DNA from: an uncultured Anaerolinea sp.
GTDB taxonomy: Bacteria > Chloroflexota > Anaerolineae > Anaerolineales > UBA4823
DNA: 64,000 nucleotides
Direction: 5' to 3'
Assembly: GCA_964503145.1 (NCBI GenBank)
Contig: CAZCYV010000004.1
Span: 142,414 to 206,413, forward strand
Shown in pieces: positions 39,834 through 63,143 of the stretch. The first letter of the stretch is position 1; each line of letters starts with the position of its first letter. The position numbers and the translations under genes are program-made. A model generated the notes under the pieces. The model searched no databases. It was not told where the DNA came from and was given only the letters and a program-made list of their open reading frames with translations.

Positions 39834-39907
39834 TCTACCGGTGTTATGCAGAAGGATCACTTGGACGCTGCGACCAACCAACCGTTTTATCACAATGAGG
39901 AAAAAGC

Positions 39908-41401: not shown

Positions 41402-41442
41402 ATCAAACACGAATCAAGTTCCAGACACCGCTGGAGGTCAGA

Positions 41443-42435: not shown

Positions 42436-42515
42436 CGTTTGCATTGCCAGATAGCACAGCATCGAGAGGATATTACCCTGTGAGGTGGAGGGCTTTCTCC
42501 TGAGGAGAAAAATGA

Positions 42516-44966: not shown

Positions 44967-47900
44967 GCCAGGGTGGACTCCTTCACACACAGAGCGAGGA
45001 TCAAATGGCCGAAAATCAGAAAACCTTTCCTGAACAGACATCGCCGACCACGAAACCTAAGCTGTGGAATTTCCTGGCGCCGGATTGGTTGCGAAGCGGG
45101 TGGGGCATCCTGGGGCTGGCCATGGGCGGCTATCTGCTGGTTTTTGCCTTGTGGCTGGTATTCAAGTGGGGCGGCGAAGAAAACCTTGTCCTGATATCGG
45201 ATCTGGCTTATTTGCCGATGAGCCTTTTCGCAGGCTTTTGCGCTATGATGGTCGCTCGAAAGGCCGATCTGCTAAAGCGGGCGCGCTGGGGGTGGACTTT
45301 CATTGGCCTGGCGATGCTTTCGACGTTCCTGGCGGATGTGCTGTGGTTTTATTTCGAGATCATCTCGCAGCAAGAGCCATTTCCTTCTCTGGCCGATCCC
45401 TTCTATCTGGCGTATTACGGACTGGCCTTTATCGGGTTGATCCTTTTCCCTGCCTCGGCCAGCAACCGAGAGTGGCGACTGAAACTCGTCCTGGATGTTG
45501 CTATTGTGACCGTCGCGGCCTGGCTTCCGATCTGGTATTTCCTGGTGGCGCCGACGATGGCCGATGTGGAGAGCGACCTGCTCACCCGCTTGCTTGCCGC
45601 AGCCTACCCGGTAGCAGACTTGGTGCTACTGGCGGGGGTGTTCTCGCTGGCCTTTCGACGTATGGAGCGAGGCCAGCTCGTCTCGTTGGGCTTGCTTTTC
45701 GCGGCATTTTCTGTGACATTTGTTGGGGACCTCATCTATGGTTATGCCGGCCTCGCGGGAGTTTACGCCGCTGGGCAATGGGTCGATATCACCTGGATCA
45801 TGGGCTACTTCCTGGTCGGACTGGCGGCACTGCGCGCGCACTATCCAGAAATTCAGCGCCCCTCCCCAACATTCGACCGTTTTTACGAGCGGTTGATCAA
45901 GGCGTTGCCCCTGGTTGTGAGCCTGTTGGGATATGCGTTGGTCGTCGCGTTAGCAGTGGTTGGGCTACGGCAAGGATTGCCAATGACTGCTTTGGTCTTG
46001 ACCACGATGGCTCTGACAGGCCTGATCCTGGGCCGACAATTGGTCGAGGTGAATGAAAACCGGCGGTTGGCCAGGGAACTGCAGGCTGCCGCTGAACAGA
46101 GGCGTAAGCTTGATGTTCATGATGAGCAGTCCGCCCGGGCGCGAGAACGCGACATCCGCCTGGTAGCAGGGCTGGCGCAAACCCTTTCGGAATTGACCGA
46201 CCTGACAGATTTGCTCCCCAAGGCGGTCGATTTGGTGCAGAGGCAGATGGCGTTGTACTATGTGCAGGTCTATCTATACGACTCAGCGCGGCGCAGCCTG
46301 GTCTTGCGGGCCGGCAGCGGCGCGGTGGGCGCAGAGTTGCTGCGTCGTGGGCATCGTTTGCCCCTGAGCCTGGCCTCGATCAACGGCACTGCGGCGATCG
46401 AACAGCGACCGGTGATCGTTGATGATGTGCGCCAAAGCGACAAATTCCGGCCAAATCCGCTGCTGCCCGAAACGCGTTCCGAGGCGGCGATCCCCTTGAC
46501 CGTCGGCGACCGACTGGTGGGGGTGCTGGATCTGCAGAGCGACCAAACTCAAGCTTTCCCAGACGAAGTTTTGCCTGTGCTGCAGGCGCTTGCCGGGCAA
46601 CTTGCGGTGGCGATCGAAAACGCGGAGCTTTTCTCTCAGGCCCAGGAGGCCCGGCAGCAATTGGAGCGCCAGATGCAGGCCATGACCCGCCAGAACTGGG
46701 GCGCATTCCTGGACGCGGTTCATCAAAGCGAGGCCATTTCTTTTGCGTATGAGGAGGGCGCTTTGCGCCCCGGTGATCAGGGATTGGATTTCGACCCGCA
46801 ACGGGTTTTGCAGTCGCCGATCACGATCTCGGGCGAGCCGCTTGGGGTGCTTGTCCTCGAAAGCCCCCAGGGCCGTACGTGGACGACGGACGAAGTCGAA
46901 TTGGTTAACGCCGTGGCTGATCGGGTTGCGCGCCAGATCGAAAACCTGCGCTTGCTGGCTCAGGCCGAGCGCTACCGTCTGGAAGCGGAAGAGACCGCCC
47001 GTCGTCTGACCCGCCAGGGTTGGCAGGAATACCAGAAGGACTTACAAGATCAACTCAGTTTTGTTTATGATCAGACGCAGGTGCAAGTAGAGGCTTCCGA
47101 TTCATCTGCGTCAACTGAGGCGACCATTCGGCAACCGCTGTTGGTGCGCGAGACGCCGATCGGGGCGCTAGAACTCGAAGGCGATCGGTCTCTAAGCGAC
47201 GAAGACCTGGCGTTGATCCAGACGGTAGCGGAGAGCCTGAGCGCGCACATCGATAGCTTGCGCCTGACCGCCCAGACCCAGGCAGCATTGAGCAACATGG
47301 AAACGCTGAACGAGGTGACGCGTGCCGCCAGCCGTACTCTTGAGCTCGACCTGGTTTTGGCTGAAATTTTGGATCGCATTTTGGGGGTGGCTGAATTTGG
47401 AGCCGGCTTGATTAGCATTGAGGATACTTTCACGAAGAGGCTGAGCCTGGCGGTGCATCGCAATCTGCCCGAAGCAATGGTGACCAAGTTAACCACCCTG
47501 GGTTTGGACGGCACACCCTGCGATGTAGTGTATCGCAGCGGCGATACGGTTATCCTCTCTGATCTTGAGCGGTTACCTGAAGACCTAAGAGCGACCAACC
47601 TGGAGGATGACTTTGTGCGGCAGGCCATGCAGCGGCCGCTGGCGATGGGTTTTCATTCGTACTTTGGGCTGGCATTATCGACAAAAGGACGTATTATTGG
47701 CACGATTTGCCTGTTCGATGAAGGGAACAAGACGATCAGCCCAGCCAAGCTCTCGATGTTAGAGGCAATCGGGCAGCAGGTTGGCATATTGGTGGAGAAT
47801 GCCCGATTATTCCAAAGCACCCAAAAGGCACTTTCGAAGACAGAGGTGCTATATACAGCTATTGCGCAGATGAACCAGGCGGAGAGCTATAAGGATATTC

Positions 47901-48583
47901 TGACTGCGCTGGCGGAGCACACTTTACTGGGGCGGGCAGATCGGTTGCTTCTGATGGGGGTTTTCGACCGTCCGATGGGTGGAGGGCAAATGCCCGAATG
48001 GATCTACCCAGTTGCCTGGCGCGGCAATCAACCGGTTCAAGTCTCCCGTCGCTATCCGGCAGAGTTGATGAGCGGCGCAATGGATGGTATGGTGAATGAA
48101 GTTCAGATTGCCATCATTAGTGGATTAGCTTCAACATCTCCAATGGCGCGGGGGGTACTGAGATTGTTCGATCTCGACCTGCCGGCCGCCAGCGTTTCGG
48201 GCGTCCCGCTGATCCTGGGCGACCGATCCATTGGCTTTGTGATTGGCGTTCACAGCCAGGAGATCGGGCCGGTGGAGGATGAGATACAGCAATTGAAGGC
48301 TATTGCTGGGCAGGCAGCGATTGCCGTGGAGAGCCGGTTGTTGCTGGAGCAGGCTCAGGCGAAGGCCCGGCAAGAGCAGCAACTGCGCCAGGTCGCAGCA
48401 AGCGTATTTGCTGCCAGTGATGTGGACTCGATCCTACGTCGGGCCGTGGAGCAGGTTGGGCGCGCGTTAGGCGCGCAGGCTTACATCTATTTGGGACAGG
48501 GCAATGGTTCGAATGGTCAGACGCCCGGCGGCGAGGCTGAGAGCGCAAACGAGGCCTCGAAAGAGCCAGCGATGGAAGGTTGA
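44963..48583 (+). CDS. Multi-TM sensor protein with about five tandem GAF-like modules, no output domain
   Basis: 1206 aa. About 9 hydrophobic helices in the first 350 aa. There are five occurrences of the GAF C-terminal helix motif (LAVAIENAELF, VARQIENLRLL, LSAHIDSLRLT, VGILVENARLF, AAIAVESRLLL). The first GAF carries KFRPNPLLPETRSEAAIPL. The ATG at 44963 overlaps the upstream stop by 4 nt; an alternative ATG at 45005 has a GAGGA upstream. Confidence 0.85.
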   Translation: MSQGGLLHTQSEDQMAENQKTFPEQTSPTTKPKLWNFLAPDWLRSGWGILGLAMGGYLLVFALWLVFKWGGEENLVLISDLAYLPMSLFAGFCAMMVARKADLLKRARWGWTFIGLAMLSTFLADVLWFYFEIISQQEPFPSLADPFYLAYYGLAFIGLILFPASASNREWRLKLVLDVAIVTVAAWLPIWYFLVAPTMADVESDLLTRLLAAAYPVADLVLLAGVFSLAFRRMERGQLVSLGLLFAAFSVTFVGDLIYGYAGLAGVYAAGQWVDITWIMGYFLVGLAALRAHYPEIQRPSPTFDRFYERLIKALPLVVSLLGYALVVALAVVGLRQGLPMTALVLTTMALTGLILGRQLVEVNENRRLARELQAAAEQRRKLDVHDEQSARARERDIRLVAGLAQTLSELTDLTDLLPKAVDLVQRQMALYYVQVYLYDSARRSLVLRAGSGAVGAELLRRGHRLPLSLASINGTAAIEQRPVIVDDVRQSDKFRPNPLLPETRSEAAIPLTVGDRLVGVLDLQSDQTQAFPDEVLPVLQALAGQLAVAIENAELFSQAQEARQQLERQMQAMTRQNWGAFLDAVHQSEAISFAYEEGALRPGDQGLDFDPQRVLQSPITISGEPLGVLVLESPQGRTWTTDEVELVNAVADRVARQIENLRLLAQAERYRLEAEETARRLTRQGWQEYQKDLQDQLSFVYDQTQVQVEASDSSASTEATIRQPLLVRETPIGALELEGDRSLSDEDLALIQTVAESLSAHIDSLRLTAQTQAALSNMETLNEVTRAASRTLELDLVLAEILDRILGVAEFGAGLISIEDTFTKRLSLAVHRNLPEAMVTKLTTLGLDGTPCDVVYRSGDTVILSDLERLPEDLRATNLEDDFVRQAMQRPLAMGFHSYFGLALSTKGRIIGTICLFDEGNKTISPAKLSMLEAIGQQVGILVENARLFQSTQKALSKTEVLYTAIAQMNQAESYKDILTALAEHTLLGRADRLLLMGVFDRPMGGGQMPEWIYPVAWRGNQPVQVSRRYPAELMSGAMDGMVNEVQIAIISGLASTSPMARGVLRLFDLDLPAASVSGVPLILGDRSIGFVIGVHSQEIGPVEDEIQQLKAIAGQAAIAVESRLLLEQAQAKARQEQQLRQVAASVFAASDVDSILRRAVEQVGRALGAQAYIYLGQGNGSNGQTPGGEAESANEASKEPAMEG

Positions 48584-48603
48584 TTTTGGAGGGAAGCAGT
48601 ACG

Positions 48604-49413
48604 ATGGATGTGCAATCGGTGATCGAGCAAGGTCAGACACAGGCGCAACGAGTTGCCATCAGCAGCCAAAAGGGGGGAGTGGGTAAGACCACTACCTGCC
48701 TGTCTTTGGGCGCCAGCCTGGTTGAGATGGGATTGCGGGTGCTGATGGTGGATTTGGACCCGCAAGGTAACCTGACCCAGGCGTTGGGGGTCGAGCCTGA
48801 GAGCCTGCGCCGGACGGTGGGCGACGCGCTATTGATGCAAGCGACCTTGCTGGAAGTGAGCCGCGAGACGGCCATTTTCAACCTGGATCTGGTACCGGCC
48901 AATCGAGGCCTGATCCTGGTCGAAAAGATGCTCCACAACACGCGGGAATACGAATTTCGGCTCAGGACCGGCCTGGAAACGCTGCAAAATGCTTACTACG
49001 ACGTCGTGCTGATGGATTGTCCACCTTCATTTGGGCCGCTGACGATCAACGCCCTGGCAGCGGCTGAACTGGCGCTGATCCCGCTGACGTGCGACTATTA
49101 TTCTCTACAGTCTTTGCAGACTTATCTTCGGTTGCTTGGCGTCTTACGAAGCCGAGCAAATCCCAGGCTGCAATACCGATTACTGGTGACACTGTTCGAT
49201 GGGCGGACGAAGCTGAGCAAGCTGTTTCTGGATCAATTTCGGCGAAAGTATGGCGGGCTGTTGTTCGATACAGTCATTCCTTTGGATGTGAAGCTGCGTG
49301 AAAGTCCAATGTTTGGCCGTCCCGTAAACCTATACGCTTCCAGCGCGCGAGGCGCACAGGGATACCGGGCACTGGCAGGAGAGTTGACAGCATGTCTCGA
49401 AGCGACGATCTAA
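48604..49413 (+). CDS. ParA/MinD-family P-loop ATPase
   Basis: Deviant Walker A SSQKGGVGKTTT, then MVDLDPQGNLT and Walker B-like VVLMDCPPS. I prefer ATG 48604 (GGAGGG 9 nt upstream) over the TTG at 48580 in the ORF track. Confidence 0.9.
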   Translation: MDVQSVIEQGQTQAQRVAISSQKGGVGKTTTCLSLGASLVEMGLRVLMVDLDPQGNLTQALGVEPESLRRTVGDALLMQATLLEVSRETAIFNLDLVPANRGLILVEKMLHNTREYEFRLRTGLETLQNAYYDVVLMDCPPSFGPLTINALAAAELALIPLTCDYYSLQSLQTYLRLLGVLRSRANPRLQYRLLVTLFDGRTKLSKLFLDQFRRKYGGLLFDTVIPLDVKLRESPMFGRPVNLYASSARGAQGYRALAGELTACLEATI

Positions 49414-50255
49414 AGAATCGCCTTGACGAATTGTTTTCGACGCTGCCCGATGCAGACTCTGGTGAGCTGCCCCCGGTTGAACCTAAAGGGCCGGCAGGCA
49501 AGGCAGTCTCAGCACCGCCAGCGCCCGCTGCTTCTCCTGTTGCGGTATCGCTGACAGGGGAGAATGCGCAGGAATGGGATCAGACGCAGTCAGGCCAGAT
49601 GGCTGGAATGCCCCCGCGCGCAGAGTTGCTGGCGGCAATCATCGATGCCACGCCAGATTGGATCTTTGTCAAGGATCGCGATCATCGCTTCGTCATCGTC
49701 AACCAGAGCTTTGCCTCTGCGCTTGGGCGCGAGAAGGATGATTTCATTGGGAAGAATGACCTTGAGATGGGCTTCCCAAAGGAAGCCGTTATGGGTGATC
49801 CGACGAGGGGCATCCAGGGATATTGGTGGGATGATGAGAAGGTTTTGAAAACCGGAGAAACGCAGACCATTCTGGGGGAGAAAAATTTCATCAACGGCCA
49901 GTTGCGCTATTTCGATGTTTTCAAGACAGCCTTGCGCAACGCCCAGGGCGATGTAGTTGGGTTGCTCGGCTATGCCAGAGATGTGACCGAGCGAGCAAAG
50001 TTGCTGGCAGAGATCCAGTCCACGGCCGAGCGCGAACAGCGATTGAGAGAAATTACCGCCCGAGTACGATCGTCGAGCGATGCAGATACGATTCTGCGCA
50101 CCGCAGTGCGTGAGTTGGGCAATGCGTTGGGAAGGAAGACTTTTATCCGATTGACGGACAGCATAGAGACCGAAACCCCATGGGTATCTAAACCTGAGCG
50201 ATCCCAAGCAGGGGACAATGGGAACCACGGTCGAGTGGTCGGAGGTGAGCAATGA
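49392..50255 (+). CDS. PAS domain protein with conserved GAF-start-like C-terminal tail
   Basis: 287 aa. An A/P-rich N-terminus, then a PAS fold (LLAAIIDATPDWIFVKDRDHRFVIVNQSFASALG...GLLGYARDVTERA), a coiled coil and the tail DADTILRTAVRELGNALGRKTFIRL. It overlaps the parA-like gene by 22 nt and the next gene by 4 nt. Confidence 0.8.
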   Translation: MSRSDDLKNRLDELFSTLPDADSGELPPVEPKGPAGKAVSAPPAPAASPVAVSLTGENAQEWDQTQSGQMAGMPPRAELLAAIIDATPDWIFVKDRDHRFVIVNQSFASALGREKDDFIGKNDLEMGFPKEAVMGDPTRGIQGYWWDDEKVLKTGETQTILGEKNFINGQLRYFDVFKTALRNAQGDVVGLLGYARDVTERAKLLAEIQSTAEREQRLREITARVRSSSDADTILRTAVRELGNALGRKTFIRLTDSIETETPWVSKPERSQAGDNGNHGRVVGGEQ

Positions 50256-53200
50256 CCGATGAGCGCATCATGCTAAATCCATTACGCCAGCGTCTGGAGG
50301 AGATAGCTCAAGCGCTGAACCAGAGCCTGCGCTCGATTCCCGATTTCGTTTGTCTGCCGGTCTCGGTCACCCATGCCTTTGCGCGCCAGGATGTCAATCT
50401 GGTGGCGACGGTGTTGGAGACCGGCGATAGTCAGCGCTTCTTGCATGATTTCATGGCCCGGGCGCAGGATCGCTTACAACGAGGCCTGTCGAAGGAAGCA
50501 TTGCTGCAGGGGTTAGATTGTCTGGAGCAGACGGTGACGCCTCGGGTGGTAGATCTCGATGCAGCGCGATTGGTCTGGCAATCATTATCACAGGCGCGTT
50601 TTGCGCTGGGAAAACAAAATGGATCGAATGGCAGGTCGGCGGCAACCGAGCAAGCGGACGACCTGGCAACCCCCAAGCAGGCAGCCACCCTGGTTAAGAG
50701 CAACCCGTCGGTCGGTAGAAAGGGTGGGACTGGTCCGCTTGGGCGAGCAGACTACAACACACAGTTGGAGCTTCTCAAACTGGTGCTGGGGCATATTCCA
50801 CAGGCAGTTTTCTGGAAAGACCGCGATCTGGTTTATTTGGGTTGCAATCTGGAATTCGCCAAAGACGCCGGTCTGACTTCTGTGGATGAAATCGTGGGAA
50901 AGACCGATTTCGACATGCCATGGCGTGAACAGGCGGAACTGTATCGCTCGGACGACCGGGCGGTGCTCGAAAGCGGCGTGGCAAAGTTGGATTACGAAGA
51001 GCCTCAGACGACGCCGGAGGGGAATATCATCTGGTTGCGCACCAGCAAGATCCCCATGCGCGATCCACAGGGGAACATCTTCGCTGTGTTGGGGATGTAT
51101 GAGGACATCACTCCCAGGAAACAGGCGGAAGAAGCCATCTTGCGGGAAAAGGCTCATGCAGAGGCATTGCTGGCCGAGCAAAAGCGGCTAGAAGCCCAGT
51201 TGCAGCAGACCCTGGAAAGGCGCGGTTTTCAAGTACAGGTGAGCACGCAGATCGCTCAAGAGATCGCTATGGCCCCGGATCTGCGAACGCTATTTCAAAG
51301 CGTGGTCACTCTGGTAAAGGAGCGGTTCGATTACTACCACGTCCAATTGTTGCGCTATGAACCTGCGCTAAATGCGGTCATCCTGGTTGCGGGCTATGGT
51401 GATGTGGGGCAGAGCATGCTGCAGGCAGGCCACCAGTTGCCGTTAGGGACGGGCCTGATCGGCACGGCCGCTGCGCTTGGGGAGACACAACTCCGCCCAT
51501 CGGTTGCGGCGGATCCGGATTGGCGGTCGAACCCGCTGCTGCCTGATACGAAAGGCGAAATCGCAGTGCCGATCAAGCTACGTGACCAGGTGTTGGGCGT
51601 GCTGGATGTGCAGAGCGACCGAGAGGGCGTGCTCGGCGAAGACGATCGCTTGCTGCTGGAAGGTCTATGTGGGCAGATTGCCGTAGCGATCGAAAGCACC
51701 CGTTTGCGCCGGGAGATGGAAGAACGCCTGCATGAATTGGATTTGCTTTACCGTTCATCGCACCGTGAAGGCTGGAACGAGTTTATACAACGGATTCAGG
51801 GTTGCAATGCCTATCTCTACGAGAACCTGGAAGTGCGCCCGATCGGCGATGGTGATCGCCAAGGTGGAGATGCTGATCCCGCAGATTGGGCTGAGCCTAA
51901 GGCGGATATCCTTGTGCCGCTCTCCATTCGCGGCCAGATTATTGGCGAGTTGGGCGTGTTTGACGACCCGATCCATCCGCTTAGCGAAGGGGAGCGTAAG
52001 CTGGTCGAGCAAGTATCCGATCAGGTTGCGCAGGCGCTAGAAAGCGCCCGTTTGTATGAACAGACTCAGGCCAGCCTGGCGGAAACACAGATGATGTACA
52101 CCGGCTCTGCTCGCATCATCGCCTCCGGAACTCTGGACGAAATCCTAAAGGCTTTGGTAGAAACGACGCGGTTGAATGAACTCGACCAGGTGATTATCGA
52201 GTTATTTGATCGCCCCTGGGAAACAGAGCCCCCAGAAACGATGGTCAATGCGGCGGTGTGGGAGCGAGAAGGTGTGCCTTCCAAAGAGTCGGTTGGCAGT
52301 GTGTATCACATGCGTGAACTGCCCTTCTTGAGCATGATGGATCGCAGTCTGCCTCTAGTCGTAAAGGACATGCTGACAGACGAACGCGTTGACCCGGCCA
52401 CACGCGAGGTTGCTGTGGATCAACTGGGCATTCGTGGTCAGGTCTTCTGGCCGATGGTGGCAGGCGGGCAATGGTTTGGCGCATTGTCAGGTCAGTCAGG
52501 CAAGCCGCTCACTCTGGAGCAGCAGGATATCCGCCGCATTGGCAGCCTGGTGGCTCAGGCCGCAACGGCTATCCAAAGTTTGAAGCTTCAGCAGGAGATG
52601 CGCTCTCGACTGCAAGAGTTGACTGCTCTGCAGCGCCTGATGAGTCGTGAAGCCTGGTCTGCTTATCAGGCCCAGTTAACCGATGAGGCCAGAGGATATG
52701 TCTTCAATCAGGTTGAACTGCTGCCGGTGAGAACGGCCTCCATGCAGGAGCAGGAGAGCAGAGCAGGCTTGCTAATGGATGATAATAACAGCGGCTACGT
52801 TGCGCCACTGGAGGTGCGCGGTGAGCCTATTGGCGCATTGGGAGTAAAGTTGGACGTCAGCAGGTCGTTGACCGAAGAAGAAGAGGCCTTCTTGCAAGCG
52901 GTTTCTGAGCAGGTGGCTCAGGCGCTTGAGCGCGCCAGGCTGATGGAGCAAACCCAAAAGAGCGCAGTGGAGCTTCAGGCAGTGGCTGAAGTTGGTACGG
53001 CGACGGCTACCATCCTTGACCCGGAGCAACTTTTGCAACAGGTGGTTGACCTGACGAAAGAGCGGTTTGGGCTGTATCATGCGCATATTTACCTGGTGGA
53101 CGAGGCTGGTGAGAATCTAGTCTTGACCGTTGGCGCAGGTGAAGTCGGACGCAGCATGACCGCTCAGGGCTGGTCTATACCAATCACCCTGGAGGATTCG

Positions 53201-54235
53201 CTGGTCGCTCGAGCAGCGCGAACTCGCCAGGGGCAGGTGGCAAACGATGTGCGTCGCGAGAGCGGTTATCTGCCCAATCCGCTGCTGCTGGATACGTTGT
53301 CTGAAATGGCGGTGCCAATGATCATTGGTGATCGCCTGCTGGGTGTATTCGACGTGCAGTCGGATAAGCTGAATCACTTCCATGAGGAAGATGTGCGCAT
53401 CTATAGCACGCTGGCTGCTCAGATCGCTGTGGCGCTACAAAATGCCAAACTTTACGCTGAACAACTGGCGACAGTAGAGCGCTTGCGCGAATTGGATAAC
53501 ATGAAATCCGCCTTTCTGGCAAACATGAGCCATGAATTGCGCACGCCGCTGAACTCGATCCTCGGTTTTACTCAGGTGATCATGGAGGGACTGGATGGCC
53601 CGCTGACTGAAGTGATGCTGGCGGACCTGGAATTGATCGAAAAGAACGGTAAACACCTGCTAAACCTGATCAATGAAGTCCTTGACATGGCGAAGATCGA
53701 CTCAGGGCGGCTGAGTTTGAACCCTGAACCCGTGGATCTGTATGAGCTCATGGAGGATGTAATTGGCACAAGCGCGCCGCTGGCCAGGGAAAAAGATCTC
53801 TTCGTGAAACTTGAGGCGGCGCCAGCCGAAGACTGGAGAGTGATGGCAGACCAGGTTCGGATGCGACAGATATTCCTGAATCTGATCGGGAACGCCATCA
53901 AATTCACGGAGGCAGGCGGCGTTACAATCACTATGAACAAGGTGCGACAATCCGCTGAGGCGGGCAGCGATTTGGTGCAGTTGCGCATCCAGGATACGGG
54001 CATTGGTATCCCGAGAAATAAACTGGATGAGATTTTCGAGGCCTTTACGCAAGTGGATAGCTCGACCACTCGAAAGGTGGGCGGCACCGGCTTGGGCCTA
54101 CCAATCAGCCGTCGCCTGGTTGAGATGCATGGTGGTCGCTTGTGGGCGGAGAGCGAAGGCATCGGAAAGGGCGCGACGTTTGTGCTAGAGTTGCCGGTGG
54201 GCGAGAGCAGCGCCAATTCTACCGAGGCGTACTAG
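50252..54235 (+). CDS. Large sensor histidine kinase: helical N-domain-PAS-(GAF-like x5)-HisKA-HATPase_c
   Basis: 1327 aa. PAS (LGHIPQAVFWKDRDLVYLGCNLEFAKDAG...GMYEDITPRKQAE). Five GAF-terminal helices (IAVAIESTRL, VAQALESARL, ATAIQSLKL, VAQALERARL, IAVALQNAKL). H-box MSHELRTPLNSI (His codon 53531..53533), N-box IGNAIKFT, G-boxes DTGIGI and GTGLGLPI. Confidence 0.92.
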   Translation: MTDERIMLNPLRQRLEEIAQALNQSLRSIPDFVCLPVSVTHAFARQDVNLVATVLETGDSQRFLHDFMARAQDRLQRGLSKEALLQGLDCLEQTVTPRVVDLDAARLVWQSLSQARFALGKQNGSNGRSAATEQADDLATPKQAATLVKSNPSVGRKGGTGPLGRADYNTQLELLKLVLGHIPQAVFWKDRDLVYLGCNLEFAKDAGLTSVDEIVGKTDFDMPWREQAELYRSDDRAVLESGVAKLDYEEPQTTPEGNIIWLRTSKIPMRDPQGNIFAVLGMYEDITPRKQAEEAILREKAHAEALLAEQKRLEAQLQQTLERRGFQVQVSTQIAQEIAMAPDLRTLFQSVVTLVKERFDYYHVQLLRYEPALNAVILVAGYGDVGQSMLQAGHQLPLGTGLIGTAAALGETQLRPSVAADPDWRSNPLLPDTKGEIAVPIKLRDQVLGVLDVQSDREGVLGEDDRLLLEGLCGQIAVAIESTRLRREMEERLHELDLLYRSSHREGWNEFIQRIQGCNAYLYENLEVRPIGDGDRQGGDADPADWAEPKADILVPLSIRGQIIGELGVFDDPIHPLSEGERKLVEQVSDQVAQALESARLYEQTQASLAETQMMYTGSARIIASGTLDEILKALVETTRLNELDQVIIELFDRPWETEPPETMVNAAVWEREGVPSKESVGSVYHMRELPFLSMMDRSLPLVVKDMLTDERVDPATREVAVDQLGIRGQVFWPMVAGGQWFGALSGQSGKPLTLEQQDIRRIGSLVAQAATAIQSLKLQQEMRSRLQELTALQRLMSREAWSAYQAQLTDEARGYVFNQVELLPVRTASMQEQESRAGLLMDDNNSGYVAPLEVRGEPIGALGVKLDVSRSLTEEEEAFLQAVSEQVAQALERARLMEQTQKSAVELQAVAEVGTATATILDPEQLLQQVVDLTKERFGLYHAHIYLVDEAGENLVLTVGAGEVGRSMTAQGWSIPITLEDSLVARAARTRQGQVANDVRRESGYLPNPLLLDTLSEMAVPMIIGDRLLGVFDVQSDKLNHFHEEDVRIYSTLAAQIAVALQNAKLYAEQLATVERLRELDNMKSAFLANMSHELRTPLNSILGFTQVIMEGLDGPLTEVMLADLELIEKNGKHLLNLINEVLDMAKIDSGRLSLNPEPVDLYELMEDVIGTSAPLAREKDLFVKLEAAPAEDWRVMADQVRMRQIFLNLIGNAIKFTEAGGVTITMNKVRQSAEAGSDLVQLRIQDTGIGIPRNKLDEIFEAFTQVDSSTTRKVGGTGLGLPISRRLVEMHGGRLWAESEGIGKGATFVLELPVGESSANSTEAY

Positions 54236-54270: not shown

Positions 54271-55938
54271 TTGGAGGTTGCAATAGCAAAGCCTGTTTTT
54301 CTCCAGTGTGTCGAATGCGGTCACGAGCAAGCCTATCGGGCTGGCGAGCCGACGATCTGTGAATTTTGCCAGTCCTCCTGGGTGGAGGCGCATTATGATT
54401 ACCACGCTTTCAAGCGAGAGCTTTTGCGCGGATTACCCGGCCGGGCGTTCAACATCTGGCGTTACCATGATGTACTACCGATCGAGAACCCGCGCAGCCT
54501 GGATCTGGAAACTGTCGGCGGCACTCCACTATACCCGCTGCGACGCTTTGCACATGAGCTGGGCTACCGACATGTCTATGTCAAGGACGAGCGGTTCGGG
54601 CCGACCAGTTCATTCAAAGACCGCCAGGCGGCGGTTTCGGTAGCAGCGATGGTCGAGAATGGGCTCAAGGAAGCTGTCATCGCGTCGACGGGGAATGCAG
54701 CAGTGGCATATGCGGCTGCTTGCGCTCGCGCTGGAATCAAGCTTTGGGTGTTCATGACCAGTATGGTGCCGCAGGAGAAGCTGCGTGAGGTGGCGCTCTA
54801 TGGGGCAGAAGTCGTCAAAGTAAGTGGGACGTATGATCAGACGAAAGCCATTGCGGCAGAATTTGCCAAGCGGCGCGGCCTGGCGCTTGACCGTGGCGCC
54901 AGCAGCCTGCCTTCGCGCGAGTCTATGAAAACCATTGCCTATGAGATTGTCGAGCAATTAGGCTGGCGTGCCCCAGATTGGTACATTCAGGCGGTCAGCG
55001 GCGGCCTGGGACCGCTCGGAGTTTACCATGGCTTTCAGGAGCTCTATGCAATGGGTTTGATCGATCGAGTGCCATCTCTGGGGGTTATCCAGGCCGAGGG
55101 GTGCGCACCGATGGTTCAGGCGTTTCGAGACGGTCAAAGCACCGCAAAAGCTGTCACGCCGCAGACGCGAATCGCAATCCTCTCCACTGGAGATCCAGGA
55201 AAGACCTATACTTACCTTTGGAAGCTGGTCCAGCGGTATGGTGGTACAATGGAAGCCGTTTCGGATGGCGAGGCGTTCAGGATCATGCGCTCTCTGGCAA
55301 AGAGCGAAGGTCTGGCGGTCGAGCCGGCTACTGCGGTAGCTTTTGCCGGACTTTCCAAGATGATCCAAAACGATGTGTTCAAGCCTGAAGAGCTTGTAGT
55401 GGTCAATTGCACCGGGCATACTTTCCCGGTGGAGAAACACGTTTTGGGTGATCAATGGAGCGTGGATCTCAAGTTGGATGATCAGACATCACCGGTTGTC
55501 CAGGAAGGACTACAAGCCGCGCTGGAACGACTCGATGAAAAGACTACCACGGTCCTGATCATGGATGACAACCCGAATGACGCCCTGCTGGTCAGACGTT
55601 TTCTAGAGGCGCGCAAGAATTACCGTGTGTTCCAGGCTGCGGATGGAGAGGACGGATTGAGGCAGGCTCAGGAGCGCTTACCTGACCTGATCATCATGGA
55701 TTTGATGATGCCTAACCTGGATGGTTTTGGCGTGCTTCAAGCGCTCAAGGGCGACGAGCGGACAAAAGGGATACCGATCATTGTCGTGAGCGCTAAAGAT
55801 TTGACTGATTTGGATCGGGCTCGGTTGAGAGGAAATATCGAGGCGATTTATCAAAAAGGCTCGTTGCCGCCGCGGGTCTTTGTAGATCAGGTGGTGGAGG
55901 TCATCGAGCATAAACGGGAGGGCCTGGATGGCATATAA
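54271..55938 (+). CDS. Threonine synthase-like PLP-dependent enzyme fused to a C-terminal receiver (REC) domain
   Basis: Zinc ribbon CVECGH...CEFCQ. PLP lysine motif GPTSSFKDRQ (Lys codon 54616..54618) and the ASTGNAAVAYAA loop. From about aa 425 there is a full REC: VLIMDDNPND, DLIIMDLMMPNLDG, IIVVSAK. The ORF track begins at 54142 inside the kinase gene. TTG 54271 is the first plausible start after the kinase stop, and no in-frame ATG lies upstream of the zinc ribbon. The start is uncertain. Confidence 0.85.
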   Translation: MEVAIAKPVFLQCVECGHEQAYRAGEPTICEFCQSSWVEAHYDYHAFKRELLRGLPGRAFNIWRYHDVLPIENPRSLDLETVGGTPLYPLRRFAHELGYRHVYVKDERFGPTSSFKDRQAAVSVAAMVENGLKEAVIASTGNAAVAYAAACARAGIKLWVFMTSMVPQEKLREVALYGAEVVKVSGTYDQTKAIAAEFAKRRGLALDRGASSLPSRESMKTIAYEIVEQLGWRAPDWYIQAVSGGLGPLGVYHGFQELYAMGLIDRVPSLGVIQAEGCAPMVQAFRDGQSTAKAVTPQTRIAILSTGDPGKTYTYLWKLVQRYGGTMEAVSDGEAFRIMRSLAKSEGLAVEPATAVAFAGLSKMIQNDVFKPEELVVVNCTGHTFPVEKHVLGDQWSVDLKLDDQTSPVVQEGLQAALERLDEKTTTVLIMDDNPNDALLVRRFLEARKNYRVFQAADGEDGLRQAQERLPDLIIMDLMMPNLDGFGVLQALKGDERTKGIPIIVVSAKDLTDLDRARLRGNIEAIYQKGSLPPRVFVDQVVEVIEHKREGLDGI

Positions 55939-56305
55939 AATCCTTTATATCGAAGATAACCCAGACAATATGACATTGGTCAAGCGCGCCCTGGAGGCTC
56001 GAGGATATGAGTTTTTGTGGGCGCAAAATGGCCTTTCGGGCGTTTCCGAGGCGATCGAAAAGCAGCCCGATGTCATTCTGCTCGACATCAATTTGCCCGA
56101 CATTGACGGTTACGAAGTGGCGCGTCGGTTGCGATCGAGCGGAAAAAGTTCGTTGGTCTATGTGCCGATCATCGCAGTGACTGCAAATGCCCTGAGGGGC
56201 GACGCAGAGAAAGCCCTGGCAGCGGGGTGCGATGTGTATATGTCCAAACCGATCAATATTCGTGAGCTTTGGGCGCGCGTTGAAGGTTTTTTGTCTGGCA
56301 GTTAG
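55928..56305 (+). CDS. Stand-alone CheY-like response regulator (REC only)
   Basis: 125 aa with ILYIEDNPDN, phospho-acceptor in VILLDINLPDIDG, IIAVTA and the KP of YMSKPI. It overlaps the preceding gene by 11 nt. Confidence 0.92.
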   Translation: MAYKILYIEDNPDNMTLVKRALEARGYEFLWAQNGLSGVSEAIEKQPDVILLDINLPDIDGYEVARRLRSSGKSSLVYVPIIAVTANALRGDAEKALAAGCDVYMSKPINIRELWARVEGFLSGS

Positions 56306-56352: not shown

Positions 56353-57513
56353 ATGTCCTATTTAATCGATTTACAGTGCTCAGAGTGCGGTAAATCTTAT
56401 GACCCGCACACCATCCAGACATTTTGCCTGGATTGTCAGGCGCCTTTGCTGGCAGTCTATGACCTGGAGAAGGCACGCGCGGCTTTAGATCGGGATGCCA
56501 TCCGGCGGCGCCCGCGGGGGATGTGGCGCTGGCAAGAGTTGCTTCCGGTGTTCCAGGCCGAGAATCGGATCAGCCTGGGTGAGGGGGATACGCCGCTGTT
56601 GCATTTGCCGCGAGTAGGCGAGAAATTGGGCCTGTCCCAACTGTATGTGAAGGATGAGAGCCTGAATCCAACAGGATCGTTCAAGGCGCGCGGTTTAGCG
56701 GCAGCAGTATCGAAGGCCAAGGAATTGGGGATACGTAAAGTGATCATCCCGACGGCGGGAAATGCCGGCGGTGCGATGGCAGCCTATGCAGCGCGTTCGG
56801 GGATCGAGGCGTGCATCTACATGCCCAAAGATACGCCGTTTGCGAACATGGAGGAGAGCCGCATTGCAGGCGCGCAGGTCATCCTGATCGATGGGTTGAT
56901 CAGCGAAGCGGCAGGGATGGCGGGCGTCCGCGCGCGCGATGAGGGATGGTTTGACGTATCGACTTTCAAAGAGCCTTACCGCTGTGAGGGGAAGAAGATC
57001 ATGGGCTATGAACTGGCGGAGGAGTTCAACTGGCATTTGCCCGAAGTGATCGTTTATCCGACTGGCGGCGGTACGGGGTTGGTGGGGATGTGGAAAGCAT
57101 TTCATGAGCTCAAGGCCTTGGGCTGGCTGGAAGACTCGGCCATGCCGCGCATGGTCGCGGTGCAGGCAGCCGGTTGTGCACCCGTGATCAAAGCCTTTGA
57201 ATCTGGCGCGGAGTTTTGCGATTACTGGGTTGGGGCGCAAACGGTGGCTTCTGGATTGCGGGTGCCTAAGAGCTTTGCCGATCAGATCATTTTGCGCGAT
57301 CTGCGCGCCAGCCATGGTAATGCAGTAGCTGTGAGCGACGATGAATTGTTACAGGCGCAGAGTATGTTAGCAGCGATGGAAGGCATATTTGCTGCTCCGG
57401 AAGGCGCAGCAACGTTGGCGGCTGTGATTCGTTTGGCACAACAAGGCTGGGTCCATCCTGATGAACGGATCGTTTTGTTTAACACGGGTACTGGTTTGAA
57501 GTATTTGAAATAA
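56353..57513 (+). CDS. thrC: Threonine synthase-like PLP-dependent enzyme (unfused paralogue)
   Basis: 386 aa. Zinc ribbon CSECGK...CLDCQ, PLP lysine motif NPTGSFKARG (Lys codon 56683..56685), and the PTAGNAGGA loop. Assignment to genuine threonine synthase rather than another fold-type II enzyme is tentative. Confidence 0.8.
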   Translation: MSYLIDLQCSECGKSYDPHTIQTFCLDCQAPLLAVYDLEKARAALDRDAIRRRPRGMWRWQELLPVFQAENRISLGEGDTPLLHLPRVGEKLGLSQLYVKDESLNPTGSFKARGLAAAVSKAKELGIRKVIIPTAGNAGGAMAAYAARSGIEACIYMPKDTPFANMEESRIAGAQVILIDGLISEAAGMAGVRARDEGWFDVSTFKEPYRCEGKKIMGYELAEEFNWHLPEVIVYPTGGGTGLVGMWKAFHELKALGWLEDSAMPRMVAVQAAGCAPVIKAFESGAEFCDYWVGAQTVASGLRVPKSFADQIILRDLRASHGNAVAVSDDELLQAQSMLAAMEGIFAAPEGAATLAAVIRLAQQGWVHPDERIVLFNTGTGLKYLK

Positions 57514-58706: not shown

Positions 58707-60017
58707 TTATGCCGGCACCGGGAATTGTGCGCAGAGTTCGGCGACTTGCTGGCGGGTGGCTTGCTGCAGATCGGTGTTTTGTGGGTCACGCAGTATCTGA
58801 CAGATCCATTTAGCGATCTGCTGCATTTGTTGCGGCCCCATCCCACGGGTGGTGGCGCAGGGGGTGCCCAAGCGAATCCCGCTGGTAACAGTCGGCTTTT
58901 CTGGATCGTAAGGGATCATATTCTTGTTGGTATGGATACCAGACTGATCCAGAATCGCTTCGGCTTCTTTGCCGCTGACCCTTTGTTTACCGTTGACCGA
59001 TCTTAGATCGACCAGCATCAGGTGGTTATCTGTCCCACCACTAACCAGGCGAATGCCTTCATCTTGGAATGCCTTAGCGAGCGCCTGGGCGTTGTCCAGG
59101 ATACGTTGTGAGTAAGCCTTGAACTCAGGGCGCAGCGCCTCGCCGAATGCGACTGCCTTGGCGGCGATCACGTGCATCAATGGGCCGCCTTGGGTGCCAG
59201 GGAAGACCGCAGAATCGATCTTCTTCGCCAGTTCGGCCTTGCAGAGGATCATACCGCCGCGCGGGCCACGCAGGGTTTTGTGAGTGGTAGTCGTGACCAC
59301 ATCGCAATACGGCACAGGATCGGGATGCAGTTTGGCTGCGACCAGGCCAGCGACATGCGCCATATCCATCATCAAATAGGCGCTAACCGAGTCGGCGATC
59401 TGACGCAGGCGAGGAAAATCGAACCAGCGAGGATAAGCGCTGGCGCCGGCCACAATCAGCCGAGGACGATGTTCCAGCACCATCTTTGCCAGGTCATCGT
59501 AATCTAATTGTTCGGTCTCTGGGTGGACGCCATAGTGGATGAAGTTGTATAGCTTGCCGCTAAAGTTGAATGCTGCGCCATGGGTGAGATGTCCACCATG
59601 ATCGAGTTTGAGCGCCAGCACGGTATCGCCTGGCTGAATCAGGGCCAGATAAGCCGCCGAATTGGCCTGCGCGCCGGAATGAGGTTGGACATTGGCGTGG
59701 TCGGCGCCAAATAATTGTTTTGCACGCTCGATTGCAAGATTTTCGGCGACATCTACAAATTGGCAACCGCCATAATAGCGTCGCCCAGGATAGCCTTCGG
59801 CATACTTGTTCGTTAAAACGGAACCCAACGCAGCTAAAACTGCGGGGCTAACGTAGTTTTCGGAAGCGATGAGTTCGATGCCGTCTTGTTGTCGCAGCCG
59901 TTCGGCCTCAATGGCGTTGTATATTTCTGGATCTTGTTGATGCAAGACCCGACGCGGATCGACAGCCTGATCCCAGGTGGTCAGGCTTGCTGGGAATTCG
60001 CCAGGATTCGCAGACAT
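58707..60017 (-). CDS. glyA: Serine hydroxymethyltransferase
   Basis: 436 aa with [14 protein letters not shown], the PLP-lysine region [16 protein letters not shown], and overall SHMT colinearity. Confidence 0.96.
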
Positions 60018-60234
60018 TTGAGCATTCCTTTCGCTTTGTATTGTATCAGCCTATTCGGGATATCGGGTTCCAGCTTCGAGGCCCAATTCTTATCGATCGA
60101 GCCAGCAATATCAGCTCGCGACGTTGACATCAGACGACAGTTGTCTTACAACATTATTTTAGTACGGATCCGTGCTTGTGTCAAGCAATCGAGGCCGAAA
60201 TTACCCGATTACGGGGCGATTCTGCCGAAACTTC

Positions 60235-60263
60235 TTGACTCGGATAGGGAAAACAGTTATAAT
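60235..60263 (+). promoter_or_regulatory. Near-consensus sigma70 promoter of the GntR-family gene
   Basis: TTGACT (60235..60240), exactly 17-nt spacer, TATAAT (60258..60263). The predicted transcription start falls on the repeated GTCAGACGAC motif. Confidence 0.7.
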
Positions 60264-60270
60264 AAAAGTT

Positions 60271-60290
60271 GTCAGACGACTATCGTCAGA
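60271..60290. promoter_or_regulatory. Candidate GntR/HutC operator (GTCAGACGAC-TAT-CGTCAGA; core inverted repeat GACGA-n3-TCGTC)
   Basis: It overlaps the predicted +1 of the regulator promoter. A related copy, TCAGACGACAGTTGTCT, is at 60130..60146, and CTATCGTCTG is at 61115..61124 upstream of the carbamoyltransferase genes. Confidence 0.45.
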
Positions 60291-60323
60291 TATCATGGCC
60301 TATTTTCGTTGCTCCTTCTCTCT

Positions 60324-61073
60324 ATGATTCAAAGAAGTGTTCCGCTGTCTCAACAAGTGGCAAATGACATCCTGGCTTCTATCGAGGCTGGCACCCTGGC
60401 GCGCCCCGGAGATGGTTTGCTTCCATCCGAGGCCGAATTGAGTCAGCGATATGGGGTGAGCCGTGCGACCATTCGAGAGGCGCTCTCCCGGTTAGAGCAA
60501 CGCGGTGTGATTATACGTCGTCATGGGGTGGGGACTTTTGTAAACTCCCAGCGGCCGGTCATCGAGTCGGGTCTGGAACGCCTCGAGAGCCTGGATACCC
60601 TGGCTCAACGGATGGGCCTGCAAACACAGATGAAGGATCTAAGGCTCGAGGAGCGCGTTGCTACAGAAAGCGAAGCGAGGCAATTGCGAATTCCAGACGG
60701 CAGCAGCGTATTGGCGGTGTCACGGGTTATCAGCATCGGAGATAGGCGGGTTGCTTATTTGGTGGACATCGTTCCGACGGATGTTCTCAGTATGCAAGAT
60801 CTCAAGGACGGTTTTGTTGGCTCGGTGCTCGATATCTTTTTGCGGCTTGGCAGGCCCGCGCTCAGCCACTCCCTGACGGAGATTTCGATGGAGAACGCCA
60901 ATGAAATTGTCGCCAGGCAACTGAGCCTGCACAGGGGTGAGATGCTGCTTAAGTTGACTGCGCAGTTGTTTAGCCTGGATGGGCGAGTCGTGGATTATTC
61001 ACACAGCTTCTTTGTACCTGGTTATTTTCGTTTTCACGTTGTACGGAGGATTGATCCGTGCGATATTGCGTAA
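60324..61073 (+). CDS. GntR-family transcriptional regulator, HutC subfamily (wHTH plus UTRA domain)
   Basis: MIQRSVPLSQQVANDILASIEAGTLARPGDGLLPSEAELSQRYGVSRATIREALSRLEQRGVIIRRHGVGTFV is a canonical GntR wHTH. The C-terminal half is UTRA-like. The ORF track starts at 59886 inside glyA; I used ATG 60324. Confidence 0.9.
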   Translation: MIQRSVPLSQQVANDILASIEAGTLARPGDGLLPSEAELSQRYGVSRATIREALSRLEQRGVIIRRHGVGTFVNSQRPVIESGLERLESLDTLAQRMGLQTQMKDLRLEERVATESEARQLRIPDGSSVLAVSRVISIGDRRVAYLVDIVPTDVLSMQDLKDGFVGSVLDIFLRLGRPALSHSLTEISMENANEIVARQLSLHRGEMLLKLTAQLFSLDGRVVDYSHSFFVPGYFRFHVVRRIDPCDIA

Positions 61074-61184: not shown

Positions 61185-62138
61185 ATGAGAAGCTTCATGG
61201 GTCGTGACATCTTATCTTTGAAGGATTTCGAGCGCCAGGAATTTTTCCGCGTCTTCGAAATCGCCAAGCAGCTCGAGCCGATTGCGCGCAATCGGCGAAA
61301 CAGCAATCTATTGGCCGAAAAGACCCTGGTGACGGCATTCTATCAGCCCAGCACGCGCACGCGCCTGGCGCACGAAGCTGCCATGCATCGTCTGGGTGGG
61401 CATGTGACCGGTTTTGCCGATGCCAAGATGACCCGCGCGGGAGATTTCTACCAGGAGTCGATCAAGGACACCGTTAAGATGCTGGAGTTCTATGGCGACG
61501 TTATCGTGATGCGCCATTTCCAGCAAGGCGCGCCGCACGAGGCGGCCAAGTGGGCTTCGGTGCCAATCATCAACGGCGGCGATGGCTGGGGCGAGCATCC
61601 GACGCAGATCCTCACCGACTTGTACACGGTGCTCGTCGAAAAGGGTCGGATCGATGGCCTGAAGTGGCTGGCGGTTGGTGATATGCGCATGCGCACAATG
61701 CACTCCCTGGGGTACGCGCTCACTCAATTCGATTGTCCGATCACCTTTGTGGCTCCGCCGGAGATGTCGCTCACGCCGGAATTCAAAGCTGAGTTGAAAG
61801 AGTACAGCCTGGATTTCAAGGAGGCCGAGCACGTCGAGCAGGCGATTGGGGACGCGGATGTGATCCTGGTCGAGCCAGTGGTGCAGCCGGATTACACCAA
61901 GTCGCGCGATGAACGGGCTGGCGATGTTGGATTGACCCCCGCCAACTACAAGATTACGCGTGAACTGCTGGCAACCAAAGCCAAGCCGGATGCGATTTTG
62001 CTCCATTCTCTGCCGCGCATGGACGAAATTCCGACGGACGTGGATATTACCCGCTGGTCGCGTTACTGGCAAGAAGCCTTCAACGGCGTAGTCATGCGCA
62101 TGGCGCTGTTGGCGCTGGTGCTGGGCGCGGTCGAATAA
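61185..62138 (+). CDS. Aspartate carbamoyltransferase-like (PyrB-family) transcarbamylase with atypical second-substrate motifs
   Basis: 317 aa, colinear with ATCase catalytic chains: STRTR, IVMRH, EHPTQ, MRTMHSL, LPRMDEI. The canonical MTRVQKER segment reads VEPVVQPDY and HPLPR reads HSLPR. Confidence 0.85.
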   Translation: MRSFMGRDILSLKDFERQEFFRVFEIAKQLEPIARNRRNSNLLAEKTLVTAFYQPSTRTRLAHEAAMHRLGGHVTGFADAKMTRAGDFYQESIKDTVKMLEFYGDVIVMRHFQQGAPHEAAKWASVPIINGGDGWGEHPTQILTDLYTVLVEKGRIDGLKWLAVGDMRMRTMHSLGYALTQFDCPITFVAPPEMSLTPEFKAELKEYSLDFKEAEHVEQAIGDADVILVEPVVQPDYTKSRDERAGDVGLTPANYKITRELLATKAKPDAILLHSLPRMDEIPTDVDITRWSRYWQEAFNGVVMRMALLALVLGAVE

Positions 62139-62162: not shown

Positions 62163-63143
62163 ATGCAAACCTTTTTACACGGTCGAGACCTGATTGGCGA
62201 TCTGGACTTTAGCAAAGAAGAAGTCGAAACTGTACTAGACGTCGCATTTGACCTGAAGCGCAAGCGAGCGCTGAACGAACCTCACCCCTATTTGCGCGAT
62301 AAGGTGCTGGCGATGCTGTTCTTCTTCTCCAGCACCCGAACGCGTGGCTCTTTCGAGGCTGGCATGGCGCAACTTGGCGGACACGCGGCGTTCATCGAAA
62401 GCAAGACCACTCAAATCGCGCATGGGGACACCCCAAAGGAGATCGGCGAGATCTTTGGGCGTTACTTTGACGGGATTGCTATCCGCCACGTGGATTGGGG
62501 GGTGGGCAATGGCTATTTGAACGCTGTTGCCAGGGCGTCCCGCGTTCCTGTGCTCAATATGCAGTGCGATATCTATCATCCATTTCAATGTCTGGCTGAC
62601 CTGATGACCATCATCGAGAAAAAGGGCCGAGACCTTCGTCGCAAGAAGATGGTGGTTTCATGGGCTTATGCGGCGTCTTATCAAAAGCCGATGTCGGTTC
62701 CACAATCGCTGGTGTTGCAGATGCCGCGTTTTGGGATGGATGTCATTTTGGCCCATCCGCCCGAATTCAAGCTGATGCCCGAAATTATGGATCAGGCGCA
62801 GGAGCAAGCCCGCAAATTCGGGGTCGGCTTCGAAGTCATGGATGACATGGAAGCAGCGTTCAAGGATGCCGATATCATTTATGCTAAATCCTGGGGCGCA
62901 ATGGTTCATACCCCGGATCCAGAAGAGGGCGCCAGAATCATCAAGAAATATTCGCATTGGATCACCGATGAGCGGAAGATGGCTTTGGCCAAGCCGGACG
63001 CAATTTACATGCACCCCCTGCCTGCGGACCGCAACATCGAAGTGACCGACGGCGTAATGGATGGCCCAAATTCGGTTGTGTACGATGAGGCCGAAAATCG
63101 TTTGCACGTTCAGAAGGCCGTGATGGCGCTAACGATGGGTTAA
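62163..63143 (+). CDS. YgeW-like carbamoyltransferase
   Basis: 326 aa with SSTRTR, TQIAHGDTPKEI and NMQCDIYHPFQ. These match my recollection of E. coli YgeW (SQIAHGETVRET, NLQCDIDHPTQ) better than OTC or ATCase. HPLPADR is near the C-terminus. Confidence 0.8.
   Translation: MQTFLHGRDLIGDLDFSKEEVETVLDVAFDLKRKRALNEPHPYLRDKVLAMLFFFSSTRTRGSFEAGMAQLGGHAAFIESKTTQIAHGDTPKEIGEIFGRYFDGIAIRHVDWGVGNGYLNAVARASRVPVLNMQCDIYHPFQCLADLMTIIEKKGRDLRRKKMVVSWAYAASYQKPMSVPQSLVLQMPRFGMDVILAHPPEFKLMPEIMDQAQEQARKFGVGFEVMDDMEAAFKDADIIYAKSWGAMVHTPDPEEGARIIKKYSHWITDERKMALAKPDAIYMHPLPADRNIEVTDGVMDGPNSVVYDEAENRLHVQKAVMALTMG

Follow-up and report, generated by a model that had tools for sequence, protein, structure and literature searches.

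The 64,000-nucleotide stretch of an uncultured Anaerolinea sp. analysed here (contig CAZCYV010000004.1, positions 142,414 to 206,413, referred to below as the window) carries a gene for a protein in which a threonine synthase (ThrC)-like enzyme dependent on pyridoxal 5′-phosphate (PLP) is fused to a CheY-like receiver (REC) domain. The open reading frame runs on the + strand from a TTG at 54271 to a TAA at 55938 and translates without interruption into 555 amino acids. Its start is uncertain by about four codons, as TTG 54271 has no Shine-Dalgarno sequence upstream and homologues begin at a position corresponding to ATA 54283. The protein is best understood as an enzymatic response regulator, a phosphorylation-gated member of the ThrC family whose reaction has diverged from housekeeping threonine synthesis; we place the probability of this reading at roughly 0.55. 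The gene, its domains and its immediate neighbours are as follows.

50252..54235, + strand: sensor histidine kinase of 1327 amino acids with PAS, four GAF, HisKA (residues 1084-1152) and HATPase_c (residues 1200-1316) domains, by Pfam
54271..55938, + strand: ThrC-like PLP enzyme fused to a receiver, 555 amino acids
54307..54369, + strand: N-terminal Cys4 zinc ribbon of the fused protein, C13, C16, C30 and C33 (CVECGH...CEFCQ)
54511..55416, + strand: fold-type II PLP domain (PALP, ThrC fold), residues 81-382, assigned from Pfam, phmmer, Foldseek and invariant columns
55417..55542, + strand: conserved linker, residues 383-424, with a HTFPVEKHVLGDQ motif and an EGLxAALxxLDE helix
55543..55914, + strand: CheY-like receiver, residues 425-548, by Pfam Response_reg
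55928..56305, + strand: stand-alone CheY-like response regulator of 125 amino acids with acceptor D53 (Pfam 3.3e-25)
56353..57513, + strand: unfused zinc-ribbon ThrC-family gene, 386 amino acids, PRK08197-type 'threonine synthase'

A first-pass annotation, made from the letters of the DNA, had proposed that one polypeptide joins a PALP domain to a complete receiver, and Pfam recovers both within 555 residues uninterrupted by a stop: PALP at 2e-70 (237.9 bits, far above the gathering score) and Response_reg at 2.7e-18 (66.6 bits against a cut-off of 30.2). The Cys4 ribbon, the STGNAA loop, the lysine of SSFKDR and a receiver beginning at about nucleotide 55543 are likewise present where that annotation had put them. 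In the PLP domain the Schiff-base residue is Lys116 of SSFKDR (codon 54616..54618), an ASTGNAA loop is present, and the further motifs are S139-T-G-N142, the S243-G-G-x-G-P248 loop and T384. The receiver has the acidic pair D432/D433 in MDDNPND, the acceptor D477 in DLIIMDLMMPNLDG (codon 55699..55701), S507 in VVSAK and K529.

The operon context was counted over 82 related loci analysed by tblastn, with informative loci as denominators. In the window the kinase gene ends 35 nucleotides before the fused gene, with no promoter-like or convincing terminator-like site in the interval, and 71 of 72 loci have the end of a HisKA-HATPase core within 600 nucleotides upstream; this kinase is presumed to be the phosphodonor of the fused receiver. 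The gene does lie directly behind a kinase, as first annotated, and the added claim that this is the only kinase core of the cluster does not hold, because the same + strand cluster has a second kinase gene (REC-REC-GAF-GAF-HisKA-HATPase, 35868..38696). Downstream, both the 11 nucleotides shared with the CheY gene (55928..55938) and the unfused ThrC-like paralogue behind it (56353..57513) are confirmed. GGGAGGG stands just 5′ of the CheY ATG. A CheY gene of 63-89% identity is the next one downstream in 80 of the 82 loci, the remaining two stopping at a contig edge. A PRK08197-type ThrC gene comes after CheY in 36 of 68 loci, and close orthologues of this gene are found about half behind the module and about half elsewhere, among the matches listed. 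The order kinase, ThrC-REC, CheY is repeated in gene calls on independent contigs; other subfamilies have ThrC-REC, CheY and a small kinase, or kinase, REC, ThrC-REC, CheY and kinase. The conserved kinase, ThrC-REC and CheY core contains no DNA-binding or other output domain, and the PLP domain is therefore the only candidate effector there.

Where ThrC is absent, nothing consistent follows CheY, and the genes found are of extra CheY, GNAT-like, REC-HD and LacI types. In some relatives further signalling genes follow the module (L039 10077..11306, L077 10081..11323). By eye or from precomputed Pfam assignments, one such follower is a REC-HD protein (RpfG-like, with an HDIGK motif), and another arrangement, also seen in L083, pairs an extra CheY with a GNAT-like protein of 289 residues.

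Distribution and conservation of the fusion

The fusion is common in Anaerolineae and is conserved along its whole length. In a scan of one genome per GTDB species, 439 stretches encode a relative. The best 80 of these 439 were examined; each aligns over query residues 5-550 with 68-82% identity, and their taxonomic labels are Anaerolineales, Anaerolineae or Chloroflexota throughout. On taxonomic spread, which the first-pass annotation had advised searching, these 80 matches place the fusion in Anaerolineae/Chloroflexota. A search of 5.8 billion protein clusters returns an identical 555-residue protein (P0001) and more than 120 clusters at 69-100% identity, all combining PF00291 with PF00072 and all from metagenome-assembled genomes (MAGs) of Chloroflexota/Anaerolineales. 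Their automatic names are 'threonine synthase', 'pyridoxal-phosphate dependent enzyme' or 'hypothetical protein'.

Drawn from 50%-identity representatives and two further homology searches, three fused subfamilies can be distinguished: the type of the window (about 550 residues), a PALP-REC-REC type (about 700 residues) and a 548-residue type of Aggregatilineales/Anaerolineae. PF00291 occurs with PF00072 in more than 120 clusters of each subfamily, more than 300 in all. The PALP-REC-REC subfamily is large (P0122, P0123, P0271-P0388; locus L083 10001..12091) and has two tandem receivers after the PLP domain, with a separate CheY gene still downstream. Variants of 844-845 residues also exist in this group (P0336, P0371).

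Residue conservation was read from alignments of 82 and 91 fused proteins, with identity down to 45%. Both alignments show little or no variation at K116, N142, the S243-G-G-x-G-P248 loop and T384. Across the 91 sequences, D433, D477 and K529 of the receiver are invariant, position 432 is D or E and position 507 is S or T. In the linker H383, T384, E388 and L392 are invariant, and G393, D394, E412, G413, L414 and A417 reach at least 90%. With both halves and the linker conserved, purifying selection must act on both domains and on their connection. The ribbon cysteines are kept in 89-91 of the 91 fused proteins and also in unfused ThrC orthologues; the Cys4 ribbon is a trait of the wider family and is not special to the fusion.

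A rough neighbour-joining tree built on the PLP portions groups the fused proteins into a single clade, nested among unfused zinc-ribbon ThrC-like proteins. P0127 was considered as an unfused sister of this clade and rejected, since most of its genomic relatives are fused too. A few truly unfused proteins of the P0127 group (about 395-420 residues; L084, L085, L094, L103, L114, L126) lie next to or within the fused clade. Their gene neighbours are unrelated and cyanobacterial-looking (LptC, DUF2301, an SDF transporter), suggesting that these proteins lost the receiver secondarily or that their genes left Chloroflexota by transfer.

Identity of the PLP domain

The PLP domain is of ThrC type in fold and in overall sequence. 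The closest PDB sequences by phmmer are threonine synthases (2zsj at 1.1e-42, 1uim at 1.8e-40). Two AlphaFold2 (AF2) monomer models, built from the 82- and 91-sequence alignments, reach a mean predicted local distance difference test (pLDDT) score of 81-82, with many blocks of the PLP core above 90 and a receiver at about 75-95 showing the (beta-alpha)5 pattern. In Foldseek comparisons ThrC structures match the model with a TM score of 0.83 at about 30% identity, and CapA2 cysteate synthase (9k3c, 21% identical) and threonine deaminases rank below them. None of the structure matches unites PALP and REC. Cysteate synthase is also rejected by its own family model, as the fused protein scores 121 bits on TIGR03844 against a cut-off of 324.9.

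With class II ThrC (Thermus thermophilus 1UIM/1V7C, Aquifex aeolicus 2ZSJ, M. tuberculosis 2D1F, B. subtilis 6CGQ) the fused protein has in common the fold-type II PLP fold, the SFKDR Schiff-base lysine, the S-T-G-N loop and the EPA(S/T)A and TGH motifs. Unlike these enzymes it has a Cys4 ribbon at its N-terminus and, joined by a conserved linker, a receiver at its C-terminus, and its loop for the PLP phosphate reads SGGxGP instead of GNAGN. Its closest family model, PRK08197, leaves it under the threshold, and on TIGR00260 it stands at the edge. On TIGR00260 (thrC, cut-off 167.1) it scores 167.4, and the fused proteins P0121 and P0125 score 165.8 and 144.9. On PRK08197 (NCBIfam, cut-off 303) the three score 243, 252 and 266 bits, whereas the neighbour at 56353..57513 reaches 567.5 bits.

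This neighbour offers the closest comparison, having the same Cys4 ribbon, a similar catalytic length and often the same operon, and lacking the receiver. BLASTP gives 32% identity between it and the fused PLP domain, and the neighbour-type ThrC proteins form a clade separate from the fused one in the rough tree. Among 99 positions conserved within both groups 40 differ, many of them in active-site motifs: KDR-Q against KAR-G, AST-GNA against PTA-GNA, SGGxGP against GGGTGL and TGDPG against VPKS (fused and neighbour, respectively). In the Thermus enzyme, Arg160 is reportedly a ligand of the substrate phosphate, and T88, N154, S155 and N188 are reported to belong to the phosphate site as well (work of Omi et al. 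from 2003). T88, N154, S155 and N188 are not kept in the fused protein. An argument from these four residues for loss of O-phosphohomoserine binding was dropped; the PRK08197-type neighbour is also without them, so only the Arg160 equivalent is informative. That position is arginine in 46 of 46 ThrC orthologues and in the window protein (R216), and it varies across the 91 fused sequences (R in 28, V in 26, K in 23, I in 10 and M in 4). Basic residues newly conserved in the fused family are R108 and R/K208. From this pattern of substitutions we read the substrate site of the fused PLP domain as remodelled. Given this remodelling and the presence of another gene of ThrC type, housekeeping threonine synthesis is probably not its task.

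A second candidate identity is MetM, the enzyme of Hasebe et al. (2024). According to PMC12172450 and the GapMind preprint, this ThrC homologue is often misannotated as threonine synthase and makes homocysteine from O-phosphohomoserine with the MetO thiocarboxylate, and it shares 51.6% identity with a 'ThrC (metM)' of Microcystis. As a proxy, thrC_1 of Microcystis, whose sequence accompanies PMC12172450, was compared. This protein is 32% identical to the fused PLP domain and 34% identical to the neighbour ThrC, has no Cys4 ribbon, and groups with P0173 (64%), P0207 (53%) and P0178 (52%) in a clade apart from the fused proteins. By this proxy a MetM lineage is ruled out for the fused clade. No ThiS-like open reading frame or S-adenosylmethionine (SAM) riboswitch was found near the fused gene, the window as a whole gives no Rfam hits, and the genes flanking the fused gene encode a histidine kinase and CheY, not a MetO sulfur carrier. 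MetM does illustrate that ThrC paralogues can run other reactions. The 'threonine synthase' label carried by hundreds of fused genes is probably wrong or at least incomplete.

The ThrC identity of the neighbour 56353..57513 is itself putative, being taken from its NCBIfam score. Orthologues of this gene occur widely in Bacteroidota, Acidobacteriota, Planctomycetota and other phyla, and in Bacteroidota they stand directly behind a LysR-family regulator (L163 2978..3886, L197 3019..3918 and other Cyclobacteriaceae/Chitinophaga loci). Ten flanking genes in all were scanned, drawn from seven loci of other phyla, and none of them is hom or thrB; the flanking genes in other phyla include LysR, cupin and AlaX-like genes among others. 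No SAM riboswitch was found in 16 orthologue loci. The assignment of these neighbour-type orthologues as housekeeping ThrC may deserve checking.

Other genes of the window

Upstream of the kinase lies a long chain of co-oriented signalling genes on the + strand (35868..50255), several of which have no output domain.

35868..38696, + strand: REC-REC-GAF-GAF histidine kinase
38769..39833, + strand: ABC-type substrate-binding protein
39908..41401, + strand: HAMP-GAF protein
41443..42435, + strand: NMT1-type substrate-binding protein
42516..44966, + strand: dCache-HAMP-GAF protein
44963..48583, + strand: multi-GAF protein of 1206 amino acids
48580..49413, + strand: ParA/AAA_31 ATPase
49392..50255, + strand: PAS-only protein

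From the dCache-HAMP-GAF gene through the kinase gene (50252..54235) the members are joined by start/stop overlaps of 4 or 22 nucleotides, and the chain looks like a multi-subunit split sensor that feeds the kinase. The genes upstream of the kinase differ among related loci.

Further downstream, two adjacent + strand genes of the aspartate/ornithine carbamoyltransferase fold (OTCace_N and OTCace) lie 25 nucleotides apart at 61185..62138 and 62163..63143. A GntR-UTRA reading frame (59886..61073, + strand, 395 amino acids) overlaps the 5′ end of a divergent serine hydroxymethyltransferase gene (58707..60017, − strand) by about 130 nucleotides. The GntR domain begins only at residue 154, and the true start is therefore probably much further downstream.

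Proposed phosphorylation gating and its alternatives

In the reading that we favour, the fused protein would be a dimer-type, fold-type II PLP enzyme of the ThrC family that carries a CheY-like receiver on its C-terminus through the conserved linker, and the signalling pathway probably acts directly on this amino-acid enzyme. The PAS/GAF histidine kinase would autophosphorylate upon a cytoplasmic or relayed signal. Its phosphoryl group would go to Asp477 in the fused receiver and also, either in competition or in parallel, to Asp53 of CheY, whose translation is coupled to that of the fused gene. Phosphorylation would then alter the receiver, either at its alpha4-beta5-alpha5 face or in its dimer state. 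Through the linker this would shift the open/closed equilibrium or the quaternary state of the PLP domain and so switch the catalytic rate. Phosphotransfer, allosteric gating and catalysis are what we infer for the fused protein from its architecture and its setting. By analogy with ThrC, cysteate synthase and MetM, an amino-acid substrate would most likely undergo PLP-dependent beta/gamma-elimination or replacement.

Known systems offer parallels for each half. Like the enzymatic response regulators CheB, PleD/WspR, RpfG and those of RssB type, the protein joins a full phospho-acceptor receiver to an enzyme and has a kinase gene adjacent. It differs from them in its output, a PLP-dependent amino-acid enzyme, and in its domain order. 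Regulatory modules at the C-terminus are known from other fold-type II PLP enzymes, namely IlvA (ACT-like) and cystathionine beta-synthase (CBS; Bateman). Plant ThrC is activated by SAM (title of PDB 2c2b). The ThrC-type proteins P0201, P0208 and P0269 (about 610-620 residues) form a further group: a Pfam scan of P0201 and P0208 finds a C-terminal LeuA dimerisation domain (PF08502) in both, and P0269 (619 residues) clusters with them in the tree. This ThrC-LeuA_dimer arrangement is apparently another undescribed regulatory fusion in the ThrC family. In IlvA, CBS, plant ThrC and ThrC-LeuA_dimer, as in the fused protein, a PALP core is followed by a C-terminal regulatory module; their modules bind small-molecule effectors, whereas that of the fused protein is a phosphorylatable receiver wired to a kinase. 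Such C-terminal domains are habitual in the PALP superfamily (IlvA, CBS, ThrC-LeuA_dimer) and by analogy lend support to gating by the receiver.

The principle of joining receivers to standard metabolic enzymes is a described general phenomenon, and fusions of this kind were noted by Galperin (PMC5847659). Full-text searches found no paper on a PALP/ThrC-receiver protein, and these searches and the automatic database names agree with the first-pass statement that no characterised ThrC-family enzyme is controlled by a receiver. The accompanying claim of a new output class survives in part: a ThrC-type output in this domain order is not described in anything found, and the wording is overstated in view of the known metabolic-enzyme fusions (PMC5847659) and of an architecture that is abundant in databases. 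The family is large and conserved, but another fusion of an enzyme with a receiver would hardly surprise a specialist.

Several observations weigh against gating of catalysis. The first-pass annotation had looked to structure prediction for the receiver packing on the active-site cleft, and neither AF2 monomer model supplies it: there is no confident REC-PLP contact or defined interface, linker residues 384-424 have a pLDDT of 30-48, and the predicted template modelling score is 0.67-0.69 in both. A linker that is conserved yet unmodelled suggests that it may work in the dimer or with a partner. Strand beta5 of the receiver is atypical, reading (L/V/I)(L/Y/W)QKG with an aromatic residue at K-2 and KG in place of KP, and this is why the Response_reg alignment covers profile positions 1-83 of 111. 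In classical response regulators the receiver is N-terminal and the output C-terminal, and here that order is reversed. In P0129 (562 residues, 41% identical), which represents a divergent fused lineage, the receiver is degenerate, scoring 27 bits on Response_reg, below the cut-off, and having no beta5 lysine; the PLP lysine motif of P0129 is retained. A conserved metabolic partner such as hom, thrB or a sulfur carrier was not found with the module. Finally, non-catalytic PLP sensor domains (GabR/MocR) also keep the PLP lysine, and its conservation is therefore not proof of catalysis.

The last point leads to the main rival, in which the PLP domain is a ligand-sensing input. It would bind an amino-acid or phospho-amino-acid metabolite as an aldimine and gate the gain or loss of phosphate at the receiver. 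The protein would then serve as a phosphate sink or connector under metabolite control and determine how far the co-encoded CheY is phosphorylated. GabR/MocR provides a conceptual model, as a PLP-enzyme-derived domain within a signalling protein; there the effector sensor is a fold-type I PLP domain, its partner domain binds DNA, and there is no receiver. A C-terminal receiver is what CheV and hybrid kinases have. The highly conserved CheY that follows even PALP-REC-REC proteins points to partitioning of phosphate among several receivers, and some loci have extra receivers and a second kinase. The non-conserved substrate-phosphate arginine of ThrC and the missing metabolic partner genes also fit a sensor. 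On the other side, all residues of catalysis and not just of PLP binding (K116, N142, T384 and the glycine-rich loop) are invariant over three subfamilies, the system already possesses very large PAS/GAF/dCache sensor arrays, and to our knowledge no fold-type II PLP domain has a precedent as a pure sensor. On balance a sensing role seems unlikely, though it stands ahead of the other alternatives.

Less probable again is a constitutive enzyme, possibly a second threonine synthase, whose receiver is a phospho-acceptor or docking tether to the kinase complex or regulates the neighbour ThrC by hetero-oligomerisation. The TIGR00260 score just above its cut-off, the ThrC structures that head both the sequence and the fold matches, the ThrC-type gene that so often follows the module and the linker modelled as flexible would all suit it. 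It is hard to reconcile with a PRK08197 score well below the cut-off, with active-site motifs strongly diverged from those of the co-resident ThrC and with a variable Arg160 equivalent, and the strong conservation of the linker and the receiver switch residues argues for functional coupling. An artefact, whether from a frameshift, a chimeric assembly or an overlooked stop separating a ThrC gene from a CheY gene, is a general caution for a window that is probably metagenome-derived, and it is excluded by the uninterrupted frame, the identical protein P0001 and an architecture found with a conserved linker in hundreds of independent assemblies.

A bolder form of the phosphorylation-gated reading can be offered only tentatively, with the odds somewhat against it: the PLP enzyme may be the sole effector of a widespread Anaerolineae two-component module, phosphorylation of Asp477 directly switching an elimination or replacement at a substrate site that is neither that of ThrC nor that of MetM. 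If so, a sensor kinase would act after translation, with no transcription factor involved, on a branch point of amino-acid metabolism or on the making of a non-canonical amino acid or signal, and this would be a two-component output class without earlier description.

Two-component systems are usually read as transcription switches. If the receiver gates catalysis, the fused protein would provide a direct route from signal to amino-acid metabolism in a group that is abundant and dominant in communities of wastewater, sediment and groundwater yet poorly cultured, and a PLP-dependent output would join the list of enzymatic response regulators. The annotation of hundreds of these genes as 'threonine synthase' can mislead the reconstruction of threonine and methionine pathways in Chloroflexota MAGs.

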